Shown here: positions 42,001 to 51,000 of the stretch, one piece after another
Layout: each line of letters begins with the position of its first letter
Numbering within the stretch: the first letter of the stretch is position 1
From: Arcobacter sp.
GTDB taxonomy: Bacteria > Campylobacterota > Campylobacteria > Campylobacterales > Arcobacteraceae
Reading direction: 5' to 3'
DNA length: 61,353 nt
Assembly: GCA_965662175.1 (NCBI GenBank)
Contig: CBFIGT010000002.1
Location: 1-61,353 of the forward strand
Program-made: the position numbers

Positions 42001-45000
42001 TAAATGATATAAAAGTAAAAAACTTCAAACACTTTGTATCTTTGATAGATAATTTAGATACTGAATTTGTGCTTATTGAAACACTAGAGAAACAAAAGAT
42101 TATATTAGATGTTAAAGAAGCAAAAGAGAGTTTTGAGGAGTTTAGGAAAATATATTATTTAAATAGTGATAGGAGAGTGAACTAATATATTGACTCTCAC
42201 CTCTAAACACTCTCCACACAATCTCCACACAAAATAGCTAAACTTCTTAAAATCAAAAAAATTAAGGAGTTTCTTTATGAAAAATCTATTTAAAATATTA
42301 CTAGGACTATTTGTATTTACAAGTTTGAGTTTTGCAGAGCCTTTACTACAAGAGGGAAGTAAAGATGGTTATGATGTGAAATTATCTAGTGAAAAATCAC
42401 TTGTTGTTGGAAATAATGAACTATTTATTGAGCTTACAAAAGATGGTGAACTAACAGAAGATACAAAAGTAAAAATCAAGTTTTATATGCCTGAAATGCC
42501 TGGTATGCCATATATGGAGTATGAGGATAAGGCAAAATTAGTTGATGGAAAATATAAAGTAAATATTAACTTCTCTATGGGTGGGACTTGGCAATATCAA
42601 TTGAAGTTTAAAACTTCAGATGGGAAAGTTCACAAAGTTAGAGGGAGCGTAAATCTCTAATGTTAAAAAATAGCTTTATCCTCATCTTATGTTTAGTGAG
42701 TTCATCTTTTTCTTTAACACTAAATGAAACAATAGATTTGGCAATATCTAATAATAAAGATTTAAAAAGTATTGAAAAATCAATAGATATAGCAAATGAG
42801 CAGATAAAGCTATCAAAAAAGTGGGAAAATCCCATTTTGACAATTGGTGCAAATGATATACAGTTTGATACCTCAAGACGTGACTTGGAGCCTATGCAAG
42901 CACAATATATAGGAATAACACAACTTATACCAATAAATAACAAGTTAGAACTGCAAGAAGAGATAAGTATCAAAGATAAAGAGATAGCAAAGCTATCTTT
43001 TGAGGATAAAAAATTAAAATTAAAATCCAAAATAATAGAGTATGCTTATACTCTAAAGATATTAGAAAGAAAATTAATACTACTTAATGAATATCAAAAA
43101 AATATAAAAGAGTTAGAGGATTTATCTCTTACTTTATATGAAAATAGTCAAGTTTCTCAAAACATCTTATTAAATCTAAAAACAATGTTTTATAAGCTTG
43201 AGTTAGAAAAAGAGAGTTTAAAAAATATAATAAAAAATAGTTATTTGAAACTTGAAGAGATAACTTATGAAAAAATAGAAAAACTGGATTTATCCTTAGA
43301 GTTAAACAAAATAGAGTTATCTTTAGATATTAACAATCACCCAAATATAAAGATATTAGAGTTAAATAGTCAAAAATTTGATAAACAGGCTCTTTTGGAA
43401 GATTCAAAAAAATTATCAGATATTAAAGTAAATCTTGCATATTTTCAAAGGGATGATAAATATAAAGATTATGCAAACTTATCTATTAGTATTCCACTTG
43501 CAATAAATGATAGGGAAAATATAAAATCATTTTTAGCAAAAATAAAATCTAATGAATATGATGAAAAACTAGAAGATAGAAAAAAAGTATTTGAAGTAGA
43601 GATTTTATCTTTACAAAATGATTTAGATAGTTATTTAAAAAAATATATGATTTTAGAGGAGACAATTATTCCAATTCAAGAGAAAAATCAGATTTTATTA
43701 GAGAGTTATAATAGTCTTGAATTAATAAAAACAAATGAAATATTTGCTAACTTAAATGAAATTATAAAAAATAAAATATTTTTATTGGATGAGATGAAAA
43801 GTTTTTTTTCAGCATATAGCAAAGCCTATTACTATACACAAGGAAAAAGTAAATGAAAACAATATGTAAATTAATAGTTATATTTCTAGCTTTTGTATCC
43901 TTGGAAGCAAAAATTTTAGAAGTAAATCAACTCTTTAATAAAGAGATAGTTAAAGTAAAAGATGAAACTGTTTATGAAACAAAGAGTTTTTACGGGGAGA
44001 CTTTATTTGCTGAAGATAGTATAAAAGATATTGTTTTAAGGGTAGATGCTTATGTTAGCTCTTTAAATGCAAACAAAAATTTAATGCAAATAAAAAAAGG
44101 AGAAGAGCTTTTCTCTTTATATTCAAATAAAGTACATAGTATAAAAAAAGAGATTGATATTTCTAAATCAATTAACAAAAATCTATATAAAAGCTCTTTG
44201 GCAAAACTTGACTCTTTGGATATCAAATTAAATCAAATCAAAAACAATGATATCTATTTTTATGCTCCTTATGATGCAATTGTTTTAAATAAAAAGATTA
44301 ATGATGGCTCATATGTAAAAAGTGGTTCATTACTTATGCAATTGGCTTCTATTGATAAATTATGGTTTATAGCAAAAGTTTATCAAAGTGATTTGCCATT
44401 TTTATCAAATAATATGGAAGCTAAAATAAAAGTAGATGGTATTGATATGAGTTTTAAAACAAAAATTGATTATATCTATCCAATGGCAAATAGTAAAACA
44501 AAAACTATAGATATAAGATTTGAACTTGATAATAAAGAGATGAAACTCTATCCTAATATGTTTGGAAAAGCTATTATAAAAACTAGTTCAAAAAAGATGT
44601 TGACTCTACCTAAAACAGCTGTTTTAACAAAGGGTTCTAAACATTATGTTTTTAAAGCTATTTCTGATGATGAGTTTGAGCCTATTTTAATAGAAGCTAG
44701 AAGAATAAGCTCTTCTAAATATGAGATTGAAGAGGGTTTAAATATAGGAGATGAGGTTATAAACAATGCGCTTTTTTTACTTGATTCAGATGCTATAACA
44801 AATGGTTTGTATGATGACAAAGATACAGACTGGTAAGGCAAAAAAATGGTAGAAAATATAATCTCATATAGTATTAAAAATAAGTTTTTAATACTGTTTT
44901 CAACTATAATCTTGACATTTGCATCCCTTTGGGCTTTGAAAAATACCTCTTTGGATGCTTTGCCTGATTTATCTCCTCCTCAAGTTATAGTGCAAGTTAA

Positions 45001-48000: not shown

Positions 48001-51000
48001 AAATTAGATTAATAAATTGATGAAAGGTTGAAGATATGAATAAATTAATTAAATCATTTTTAGTTATCTGTTTTGGTGCATCAATTGCTCTAAATGCATC
48101 ACCACATAAATTAGATAAAGGTCATAGTGATGTTGCTTTTTCAGTAAAACATCTTATGATTACTAATGTAAAAGGTAATTTTAAAGAGTTTGATGGAGTT
48201 ATTGATTTTGATTATAAAACAAAAACTTTTAATACTTTTAAAGGTACAATTAAATCAACATCAGTAGATACAGGTATTGAAAAAAGAGACAATCACTTAA
48301 GAAGTGAAGATTTCTTTTTATCAGAAAAATATCCTGATATTGTTTTTGAGATGACTTCTTATAAAGCTGATGGGGATGAGGGTATTATGACTGGTAATTT
48401 AACTATTAGAGGGATTACAAAAGTAGTTGAATTAGAAGTTGAAGATTTAGGTACAGTAGTTGATTTCCAAGGAAACAATAGAGTTGGATTTACATTAAAA
48501 GGAAAAATCAATAGATTTGATTATGACTTAAAATGGAATAAAGCTTTAGAGTTAGGTGGAGTTGCTGTTAGTGAAGATGTTAAACTTGTTGCTGATTTAC
48601 AAGCAATAGAAACAAAATAAATTTAAAATAGGAGAATTATATGAAGAAAATGATTATGTTAGTAGCTGCGCTACTATTTACAACAGGTATGGCTTTTGCT
48701 GATGGACACAAAGGTTCTTGTGGAGCTGGTAAATGTGGTTCTGAAGTTAAAAAAGAGATGAAACAAGAGGGTTCTTGTGGTTCAGGAAAATGTGGTTCTG
48801 AAATGAAAAAAGAGATGGAAGAGAAAAAAAGCGGTTCTTGTGGTTCAGGAAAATGTGGTTCTGAATCTAAAAAAGAGATGAAAGAGACTAAAAAAGCAAC
48901 TGGTTCTTGTGGTGCAGGAAAATGTGGGTGAGATAAACCACCTTTTTGAGTGTAGAACTTTCTACACTCAAAACTATTTACATAAAACTTTTAACCTACT
49001 ATTCGTATAAAAATAAGCAAAAATAGCAGCTGAGTAAATCATTACAAACATTCCTACAAATAAGTATACATACTCTAGTTCGTAATACTTTACAATTATA
49101 AATGCAACTAATGTTTTAGCAATAATCTGTCTATAAAGCCCAATCCAAAAAATCATCTTAACTTGTTTGATAGCTTGAAGAGTTGATACACAAATAAATA
49201 ATACAACATAAGCATAGAAAATCCAAACTTCAACTAACAAATAATCAAAACCATATTGAACTACATTTGGGTCATTATCAAACTGTTTGATAATAAAATC
49301 ACCAAATAAATATAAAAATCCAATACCAAAAGTAGAAATATAAAAACCATATTTTAATGATACTTTTACTATTTCTCTTACTCTATCAAACTGTTTAGCT
49401 CCATAGTTGTTTGAAACCAAAGATAAAACAGCTGTACTAAGTCCAAGTGCAGGTAAAAGCATAAGTTGCTCAACTCTAAAACCTATCCCATAACCAGCAA
49501 CTGCTTTTACTCCATAATGAGTAACAAAATATGTAAGAATAACAGAACCAAAAGCCATTGTAAGCATATTTAAACTAGCTGGAGTTCCTTGTTTTATAAA
49601 AGCATTAAAAACTCTTAAGTTAGGTAAATAGTACTCTAGTTTATCAAAATGAATTAGTTTTGTTTGTAAAACCTTATAAAGCATATAAAACATATTTATT
49701 ATTTGTATTAAGACTGTAGCAAAAGCAATTCCAGCTATTCCCATACTAGGAATAAACCAAAATCCATAAATAAATAGAGGATTTAAAACTAAATTAGCAA
49801 AAAAACCAAAAACCAAAGAGTTCCTATATGTTTTTGTATCTCCCCTTGCAACTAAAATTGCATTTAATGAGAAGTTTGTAGTAAAAAAAACAGCTCCAAA
49901 AAGTATAACATTCATATAATCAAGTGAAATATCTAGATATTCACCTTTTGCACCAAGTATAGTAAAAATATATGGAGAGACTAAATATCCAATGAAAGCT
50001 AGAATAAGCCCAAGACAAAATAGAAAACTAATACCTTTATGTGCATAAATAGAGCCTAAATGGTATCTTTTTTTACCAAAGGCATTTCCAATAAGTGCTG
50101 TAATCGCAGATGAAAATCCATATCCAAAGCCAATAATCAAAAAATAAATCATAAATGATAGTGTTAAAGCAGAGACTGCTTCTGTGGAGATAAGTCCCGC
50201 ATAAAATGTATCAACTACATTATACATAGTGTTAAAAAACATTCCAGTACTAGCTGGAATTGCTAACTCTTTTATTAGTTTTGGGATTGGTTCTTCAAGT
50301 AAGTGCTTACTTTTATTCAAAAATTTTCCTTACTTGAAGTTTTTATTTGTAGTTTTAGTCTTCTATTCTAATCATTACAGGTTTAGTTGTAACTACACCT
50401 GAGTTTTCTAAAGCATTAAGTGCATCTTTTATATCTTTTTCAACACAAATATGAGTAGAAAGTAGAAGGTGAGCACAAGTTTTATTGTATGGTTTTTGAA
50501 TCATTTTTTCTATAGAGATATTTTTATCACCTAAAATTGTAGCAATTTTGGCTAAAACACCAACTTTATCTTCAATTCTAAGTCTTAAGTAGTATTTAGT
50601 CTCTATTCTATCTTTTGGAATAAGTTGTAAATTCTCTTTATGATCAAATTCAAAACCAAGCATTGGAGAACCTTTACCTCGTCTTGCAATATCAATTATA
50701 TTTGCAATAACAGCACTTGCAGTTGCATTTCCACCAGCACCAGGTCCATAATACATAGTCTCACCAACTTTATCTCCAATTACAGAAACTCCATTCATAA
50801 CACCATCAACTTTTGCAATCATTTCACTATTTGGAATAAAAGCTGGATGAACTCTTAGTTCAACCTCTTTCCCTATTTTTTTAGCGATTGTTAAAAGTTT
50901 GATTGAGTAGTTAAACTCAGTTGCAAAATCAATATCTTCAGGAGAGATATTTTGAATTCCCTCGATTAATATATCTTCAGGTTTTGCATCAACATCATAT

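Follow-up and report, generated by a model that had tools for sequence, protein, structure and literature searches.

Layout of the locus

The window, a stretch of 61,353 nucleotides (positions 1 to 61,353 of contig CBFIGT010000002.1, assembly GCA_965662175.1, Arcobacter sp., family Arcobacteraceae), encodes a heavy-metal efflux system followed by a small Cys-rich repeat peptide. The gene row in an earlier note on this DNA holds (YtkA, OEP, a CusB-type adaptor, CusA/CzcA and YceI), and the features are as follows.

33331..35128 (+), OmpR-type response regulator and histidine kinase, a CrdRS-like pair by position
42213..42229 (+), tandem box TCCACA-N5-TCCACA upstream of ytkA/crdA; 33.8 bits, the best-scoring site of the genome
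42277..42660 (+), YtkA-like CrdA homologue (PF13115), a predicted Met-rich periplasmic copper protein (MPEMPGMPYM)
42660..43856 (+), outer-membrane efflux protein OEP (CrdB/CusC-like)
43853..44836 (+), CusB/CzcB-type periplasmic adaptor
44846..47962 (+), CusA/CzcA heavy-metal RND pump (TIGR00914, 1007.7 bits, cut-off 701)
47973..47989 (+), the second tandem box (TACACA-N5-TACACA, 23.3 bits), which opens the yceI-peptide unit
48036..48620 (+), YceI-family secreted protein
48641..48931 (+), HvfA/oxazolin-like repeat peptide of 96 aa; 8 Cys, Lys/Glu/Met linkers, no confident fold
48641..48700 (+), Sec-type signal peptide of the repeat peptide, residues 1-20, with cleavage probably after AFA
48713-48739, 48770-48796, 48833-48859 and 48902-48928 (+), the four GSCG[AS]GKCG motifs of the peptide
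48932..48973 (no strand), gap of 42 bp, the slot of MNIO and DUF2063 in relatives
48944-48957 / 48960-48973, 14-bp inverted repeat inside the gap
48974..50320 (-), convergent MATE gene, a conserved right-hand landmark outside the system

The peptide had been described as the end of a Cus operon. It does lie downstream of the row, but it is not simply the last gene, as yceI and the peptide are headed by their own box. All seven congeners lack yceI in this slot, and there the box stands 59-74 bp before the peptide. The inverted repeat between the peptide and the MATE gene is likely a bidirectional terminator. Assembled contigs of two RNA-labelled runs span the yceI-peptide junction with 1-2 differences, which shows neither transcription nor co-transcription.

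Judged by gene order and motifs, the pump belongs to the CrdAB-CzcBA type of copper exporter, in which a CrdA homologue with an MXXMPGM motif precedes the outer-membrane factor, the adaptor and CzcA. The YtkA-like protein has a homologue of known structure, a "Copper resistance protein" (PDB 9ll2; E 1.3e-15), with MPEMPGMP common to both, and fits H. pylori CrdA. CrdA of H. pylori is a periplasmic Met-rich copper chaperone (PMC9182242). The locus resembles H. pylori CrdAB-CzcBA with CrdRS in its small Met-rich CrdA homologue, outer-membrane factor, adaptor, CzcA pump and nearby OmpR-type pair, and differs from it in the extra box-headed unit of yceI and peptide, with or without MNIO and DUF2063. 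The OmpR-type pair presumably represents the CrdRS orthologues; in relatives such a pair directly precedes ytkA, whereas here about 7 kb of other genes intervene.

At a threshold of at least 12 bits, the box precedes the peptide unit in 8 of 8 genomes of the genus, 16 of 30 other orphan loci (peptide without enzymes) and 52 of 64 enzyme-linked loci. The corresponding counts are 0 of 763 genes in eleven control classes, 1 of 66 MNIO genes and 9 of 88 regulator genes, with the caveats that the box was first noticed in these same loci and that many of the control genes lie inside operons. Genome-wide, the six highest-scoring distinct sites all lie before copper-handling or metal-related genes. 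The box, a candidate regulator site, marks the copper genes of this genome, and that they share it gives indirect support to a possible copper induction through CrdRS. A scan for sigma-70 promoters gave 46 sites where 45.5 were expected.

The repeat peptide and its empty enzyme slot

The open reading frame at 48641-48931 (+) is as first reported, 96 residues with a signal-like N-terminus, but it contains four repeats (at residues 25, 44, 65 and 88) and eight Cys, not five repeats and ten Cys. Its N-terminus has the KK, hydrophobic core (mean 2.69 over 11 residues) and AFA site of a Sec signal, as judged by inspection and hydropathy and not by a dedicated predictor. The mature part has four Met and one His, and the AlphaFold model, from 16 sequences, has a pLDDT of 43.7.

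Placement in the HvfA family stands for the domain model and falls for the full-length one. The peptide passes NF050137, a KCGxGKCG-type repeat motif (31.6 bits, cut-off 19.5), and fails the full-length HvfA equivalog NF050188 (33.7 bits, cut-off 95), so the model cover quoted earlier can refer only to the 29-position motif model. Given that an enzyme-linked Arcobacter precursor also fails NF050188 (28.7 bits), that model does not separate the enzyme-linked from the enzyme-free state. The match is not the chance product of low-complexity composition that had been feared, because this is the only ORF in the whole assembly with more than one CxxGKC and its orthologues occupy the same locus across the family.

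In many relatives, MNIO and DUF2063 genes fill the slot between the peptide and MATE. As previously claimed, the genome has no recognizable MNIO: searches of the assembly with PF05114 and PF09836 (DUF2063) gave 0 matches, and family-specific HMMs (63 MNIO and 61 DUF2063 relatives) found nothing in it, with best E values of 0.39 and 0.31. All seven congeners carry the peptide with an empty slot. Six have no PF05114 match, including five in 1-3 contigs (closed or nearly closed), and in the seventh the match is only partial, distant and without DUF2063. A published table scores A. nitrofigilis as MNIO-negative. Family-wide, 37 of 103 peptide-positive genomes have no MNIO match, and 16 orphan genomes are in at most 3 contigs and at least 99% complete. 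The PF05114 match of genome G049, which is partial and has no adjoining DUF2063, was not counted as HvfB. Profile matches in G115 have no motif-bearing ORF behind them.

Loss, selection and leader change

Across 120 fetched loci and the window, this one slot occurs in three states: peptide with enzymes, peptide only, and neither. Loss is shown as the direction of change in one lineage; the slot of G030 holds a decayed MNIO remnant (89.9% over 109 nt to G019). On a tree of 36 genomes the orphan label requires five changes, four of them forced by strong branches. In the best explanation, set out below, the family lost the enzyme genes on more than one occasion.

The orphan peptides are under purifying selection, with a pN/pS of 0.24 in 16 orphan pairs and 0.23 in 10 enzyme-linked pairs. 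Orphans retain the two motif Cys (the first in 116 of 122 motif copies), and their middle residues are more variable (GA in 61 of 116 copies, against 205 of 223 in enzyme-linked ones). Among 41 non-adjacent peptides there is no broken copy save one truncated at a contig end; that of G026 is interrupted by an N-run. The peptide is dispensable, given that it was cleanly lost from the slot in several lineages that still have the pump (G084, G151, G153, G154, G014, G016 and G040). In G052 and G114 an unlinked peptide copy coexists with an MNIO elsewhere in the genome. Enrichment in Met as a compensation in orphans was considered and rejected as a clade effect, being significant across all peptides but higher in just two of seven contrasts.

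The signal peptides of MNIO-linked Arcobacteraceae precursors have a conserved KLAGxxLGAAL stretch, a motif defined in this analysis, that scores above 10 in 62 of 64 enzyme-adjacent peptides. Orphans lose or replace it, and the window peptide is without it (leave-genus-out score of -13.4 bits, against a median of 31.4).

Function of an enzyme-free peptide

Given that the enzyme was lost while the peptide was conserved and the copper-defence box retained, the peptide probably serves, in unmodified form, as a weak buffer for copper. We lean, by a narrow measure, towards an origin from an MNIO-modified precursor of the oxazolin/captophorin type, whose enzymes were lost more than once and which was kept as an unmodified, low-affinity periplasmic copper sink; among the readings weighed here, a selected, MNIO-independent variant with this function is the most likely. 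The MNIO-independent, copper-linked branch proposed in the earlier note gains support: the slot is empty, closed congeners have no MNIO either, selection is purifying, the box has been kept and the leader has changed.

In this scenario, an ancestral precursor and its enzyme genes would have stood beside the CrdAB-CzcBA copper pump, and the enzymes would then have been lost and the peptide retained unmodified. Under copper stress, a CrdR-like regulator may switch on pump and peptide from separate boxes. The peptide would be exported by Sec with no cytoplasmic modification step, and in the periplasm its four CxxxxC pairs and linker Met could form a cheap, disordered Cu(I) sink of low to moderate affinity, the pairs cycling between thiolate-bound and disulfide states. 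It may act beside the pump like SilE/PcoE, with CrdA doing the chaperoning.

Several observations count against a sink. Unmodified HvfA produced in E. coli had all eight Cys in four disulfides as isolated, binds Cu(I) weakly and did not compete for it with BCA, although it still retained 2-3 Cu(I) (PMC11252979), and Caulobacter BufA without BufB or BufC gave no copper protection (PMC11626156). DsbA-family and DsbB genes are present in the window genome, so the unmodified thiols invoked previously, besides being eight and not ten, may well be oxidized. The clean losses weigh on the same side.

The disulfides, the weak Cu(I) binding and the Dsb genes also lend interest to a redox role, which we regard as rather unlikely: the peptide would be kept and copper-induced, but mainly as a periplasmic thiol-disulfide buffer or sacrificial substrate in copper-catalysed oxidative stress and not as a metal store. 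The retention of both motif Cys and the fusion of the motif to DsbD_2 and cytochrome c proteins would fit this; so would the response of H. pylori CrdRS to nitrosative stress too, as described in PMC9696931. The motif is likewise joined to PCuAC and NosL, which are dedicated copper chaperones, and CxxxxC outside a thioredoxin fold is no known redox catalyst; both points speak for a different role. That the peptide is a slowly decaying leftover of a RiPP cluster now gone, with hardly any function or none, seems improbable. Deletions in several lineages, including sisters of the orphan G152, the looser middle residues and the ineffectiveness of unmodified precursors in tested systems are compatible with decay. 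Against it, the frame, signal peptide and Cys pairs are intact over a clade whose housekeeping proteins span about 0.3 substitutions per site, pN/pS is at the enzyme-linked level in pairs split after the loss, a conserved box stands immediately ahead of the orphan gene, and broken copies are nearly absent.

The first reading of this locus was that the peptide replaces CusF, handing Cu(I)/Ag(I) to the pump. The peptide adjoins the pump and shares its box, and there is no CusF at the locus, the only CusF domain of the assembly being fused to the CusB of a second pump. Nonetheless, we consider this quite improbable: the CrdA homologue, which opens the operon and accompanies the pump, is the better stand-in, 17 fetched loci have the pump without the peptide, and where the pump is inverted or moved the peptide remains with yceI/MATE. 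The peptide also has no confidently predicted fold, and no Pfam match, hence none to PF11604, the folded beta-barrel metal chaperone domain of CusF. Least of all do we expect that the peptide still undergoes modification, whether by an MNIO hidden in an assembly gap or by some enzyme that goes unrecognised. The assembly, in 249 contigs, is only 94% complete and misses the PCuAC-Sco locus found in all seven congeners, unlinked copies do coexist with MNIO in G052 and G114, and signal peptides are dispensable for modification under overexpression; however, the slot is closed within one contig, the congeners are likewise without enzymes and A. nitrofigilis is scored as MNIO-negative, so that a gap, the caveat raised earlier, is no explanation.

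The peptide resembles several known systems in part. Like H. influenzae HvfA/oxazolin (Buf_EGKCG; captophorin), the peptide has about 95 residues, a Sec signal, repeated Cys pairs (CG[EA]GKCG), eight Cys and an NF050137 match, and its close relatives carry MNIO and DUF2063 directly downstream. Unlike HvfA, whose modification was reassigned to 5-thiooxazole (bioRxiv 10.64898/2026.06.05.730506), it has GSCG[AS]GKCG in place of AEGKCGEGKCG, fails NF050188, stands beside a copper pump and has neither enzymes nor leader motif. With Caulobacter bufferins (Buf1/Buf2) it shares Sec export, Cys and a tie to periplasmic copper defence; those belong to other sequence families, need BufB/BufC and are SigF-regulated, whereas the peptide lies behind an OmpR-type box. 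Similarly, SilE (PMC5008109) and PcoE are small, secreted, disordered, repeat-built sponges beside CBA-type pumps. The low pLDDT is consistent with disorder but is not proof of it, and SilE/PcoE bind through His/Met motifs and have no detected homology to the peptide, which may at most work like them.

The earlier note rightly guessed that orphan precursors might already be listed: the MNIO survey PMC12452194 counts them (67 of 2583 genomes) and discusses them briefly, leaving them unexplained. Subscription papers and bioRxiv supplements aside, we found no description of this Arcobacter case in the literature, and a keyword look at the main text of a Nitratiruptor Cu/Cd transcriptome study (PMC10092412) gave nothing on such peptides. 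The survey left two questions, namely whether enzyme-less precursors are dead or function without modification, and whether the Sec signal also serves as the leader that the enzyme recognizes. Arcobacteraceae offer a replicated natural experiment at one locus, where orphans are common, selected, placed behind a copper-gene box and set apart from enzyme-linked copies by that very signal peptide. With a close orthologue (Arnit_0165) in a cultured type strain, Arcobacter nitrofigilis DSM 7299, both questions can be put to the test directly. For many Campylobacterota proteins, then, the automatic annotation "HvfA family modified RiPP metallophore" is mistaken.

The motif also occurs on other proteins: all seven congeners have it as a PCuAC tail, and MNIO-less genomes show it on NosL, DsbD_2 and cytochrome c proteins. 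More speculatively, and with the balance somewhat against it, CGxGKCG could be a portable, modification-independent copper-binding unit of Campylobacterota, serving both in free repeat sponges and as a tag carried by the periplasmic copper chaperones PCuAC and NosL and by further exported proteins. The MNIO-made thiooxazole would then be an optional affinity upgrade gated by the signal-peptide motif, and lineages that drop the enzyme would erode or swap the leader and keep a working unmodified metallophore. Upstream of the genes for tailed PCuAC there is no box (all seven score below 0 bits), and among free peptides of other families a box of at least 12 bits precedes only 3 of 13.

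The peptide and its pump operon

The peptide that follows the CrdAB-CzcBA-type copper pump genes is 96 aa long, with a Sec-like signal, four GSCG[AS]GKCG motifs and 8 Cys, not the five repeats and ten Cys counted in an earlier note on this DNA. The placement in the HvfA family made there stands only for the 29-position NCBIfam motif model NF050137, which the peptide passes (31.6 bits, cut-off 19.5); it fails the HvfA equivalog NF050188 (33.7 bits, cut-off 95). Because the defining enzymes are missing, the peptide is outside the modified oxazolin class. The host genome belongs to the Arcobacteraceae, judged from named relatives, and Arnit_0165 of A. 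nitrofigilis is a close orthologue.

Features of the window:
48641-48931 (+), repeat peptide
35405-42185, further genes (about 7 kb) between the regulator pair and ytkA, which adjoin in relatives
35405-36881, split ATPase-like pair within this segment
within 35405-42185, LRR-like protein and PDZ serine protease, also in this segment

The upstream row is as previously described (YtkA, OEP, adaptor, CusA/CzcA, YceI). The YtkA protein shares MPEMPGMP with PDB 9ll2, a 'Copper resistance protein' that it matches at E 1.3e-15; this motif and the protein's size fit H. pylori CrdA, reported as a Met-rich periplasmic copper protein (PMC9182242). The H. pylori crdAB-czcBA operon is reportedly induced by copper via CrdRS (PMC9696931). 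Given this resemblance, a chaperone-like small partner already heads the operon, which tells against the earlier proposal that the peptide stands in for CusF. A second pump's CusB (L287:5860-7383) bears a CusF domain at its C-terminus.

Loss of the enzymes and retention of the peptide

Neither a Pfam search nor HMMs built from 63 MNIO and 61 DUF2063 family sequences found these enzymes in the 94%-complete host assembly, in line with the MNIO absence first claimed. In 120 fetched loci and the window, the slot between the peptide and a convergent MATE gene takes three states: peptide, MNIO and DUF2063; peptide alone; or neither. In the window, 42 bp separate the peptide stop from the MATE gene. 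The PCuAC-Sco locus of 7/7 congeners was not found in the host assembly, which therefore does have gaps or losses. As to the concern that the enzymes fell into such a gap, the slot is also empty in all seven congeners, five of them in 1-3 contigs, and 16 orphan genomes (peptide without MNIO) overall have <=3 contigs and >=99% completeness.

Across the family, PF05114 matches 68/184 genomes (one, G049, by just a distant partial match) and the peptide profile 103/184, of which 37 lack an MNIO match (one, G115, through a spurious peptide match). A divergent MNIO-like TIM barrel (L176:4061-4849; PF05114 over cut-off but partial) lies in an apparent surface-polysaccharide cluster, where no DUF2063 or precursor was seen.

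In G030 the slot holds a decayed piece of an MNIO gene (89.9% over 109 nt to G019), and the direction in this genome is therefore loss. Orphans split among separate clades in trees of locus-linked housekeeping proteins (70 genomes), and in a 36-genome subset the orphan label requires five changes, strong branches forcing four. Slot enzymes cluster largely by genus, as would be expected from vertical descent with losses; in the G001 group the enzyme genes may have been regained. Pooled pN/pS is 0.24 for orphan pairs (n=16; 281/3707 vs 306/964) and 0.23 for enzyme-linked pairs (n=10), with genomes shared by some pairs and repeats that may misalign. Judged by these ratios, the orphan peptide is under selection and not a relic. 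Several pump-bearing lineages have lost it by clean removal, which counts against indispensability.

As suspected, orphan precursors had been listed before: the MNIO survey reports Buf_EGKCG precursors without MNIO in 67/2583 complete genomes, terms them rare, and reads them as active unmodified or functionless (PMC12452194). Campylobacterota go unmentioned in its main text as excerpted, and at least three of the 41 Arcobacteraceae-labelled rows listed in its table are precursor-positive and MNIO-negative. A. nitrofigilis is scored 0 there for both precursor and MNIO, although it encodes Arnit_0165. Literature searches for an Arcobacter orphan case found no description; these peptides make two stated open questions bench-testable.

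Copper box and signal-peptide leader

A tandem box (T[AC]CACA-N5-T[AC]CACA) sits some 65 bp upstream of ytkA, with a second copy before yceI; the congeners have no yceI here, and their box directly precedes the peptide. This candidate, originally spotted in these same loci, was scored with a matrix whose training set comprised 43 ytkA sites of other genera. At >=12 bits it precedes the peptide unit in 8/8 genomes of the host genus, 16/30 other orphan loci and 52/64 enzyme-linked loci; controls gave 0/763 genes in eleven classes, 1/66 MNIO genes and 9/88 regulator genes. The host genome has 28 sites of >=14 bits. At the top of the ranking, six distinct sites stand in front of crdA, the yceI-peptide unit, two heavy-metal P-type ATPase units, a second CusCBA unit and a SHOCT-DUF411 pair (DUF411 being metal-related), and lower-scoring sites mostly precede unrelated genes. 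The peptide is probably still within the copper regulon and copper-regulated.

The leader changes together with enzyme state. The pattern K[LMIV][AV]Gxx-LG[ATV][ATV][LI], composed post hoc from viewed sequences, occurs in 56/64 enzyme-adjacent peptides vs 0/40 others (G107 and G020 excluded for an N-run and truncation). With a leave-genus-out matrix, 62/64 enzyme-adjacent peptides exceed 10 bits (median 31.4), as do 11/22 orphans with an eroded leader (median 8.6) and 0/13 of the window's group, whose signal peptide is wholly different (median -16.7). Pooled P values are overstated because kin are not independent. Held-out genomes from other families show the same trend, with overlap: medians are 1.9 (7 adjacent) vs -13.7 (13 free), and 78/91 adjacent/free pairs fall in the expected order. 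Signals are more hydrophobic in orphans (median 2.46 vs 2.11). The survey speculates that the signal peptide belongs to the recognition sequence (PMC12452194); overexpression studies report it as dispensable (PMC11252979, PMC11626156). One genome (L084, L085) has an enzyme-linked precursor with a conserved leader elsewhere and a swapped-leader copy in the pump slot, and is a natural internal control.

Likely role and related metal peptides

Unmodified HvfA made in E. coli is reported to be 8 Da light, equal to four disulfides, and to keep 2-3 Cu(I) without competing with BCA (PMC11252979); in Caulobacter, BufA without BufB/C gave no protection (PMC11626156). The host genome encodes DsbA-family and DsbB proteins. 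Free high-affinity thiols can therefore not be assumed, and with 8 Cys the earlier picture of copper buffering by ten free thiols falls away. At most, the evidence supports a weak, redox-coupled copper sink, with a chiefly redox function as a serious competitor. The peptide is an enzyme-free derivative that is under selection and probably regulated by copper, and we lean slightly towards its acting as a periplasmic sink, in its mode of action like SilE/PcoE. The MNIO-independent branch proposed earlier survives in this form, with the empty slot shared by every congener, the low orphan pN/pS and the retained box.

The motif is also used without MNIO elsewhere in the class. Among 301 genomes sampled class-wide, its DNA pattern occurs in 37 and an MNIO over cut-off in 13; of the 27 genomes with the pattern but no MNIO, 21 carry it in frame, five showed no in-frame ORF and one was left out of this check. 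It occurs both in free repeat peptides and as a terminal tag on PCuAC, NosL, DsbD_2 and cytochrome c proteins, with tagged PCuAC in 7/7 congeners.

Sco-adjoining PCuAC chaperones (L161:3906-4388, L162-L167, L170-L172), mostly in MNIO-less genomes and at the locus not found in the host assembly, have Met-rich tails with 1-3 SCGxGKCG motifs. A lipoprotein family whose members have MKCGAGKCG motifs at each end (L258, L261, L268, L274, L275, L284) turns up repeatedly in other families, in genomes that lack MNIO; NF050137 gives one tested member the automatic label 'HvfA family'. Tandem peptide paralogues (L106:3561-4129, L055:9607-10336, L077:7010-7869, L069:7710-8352) include some with lipoprotein-type signals, metallothionein-like CxC inserts and up to 19 Cys. 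On host contigs C101 and C114, three secreted proteins (L287:972-1181, L287:4007-4486, L288:1223-1525) share a GDHMGDHMH-type His/Met repeat that has no Pfam match; one is fused to YtkA, two lie behind a copper box, and the three resemble a second family of SilE-like sponges.
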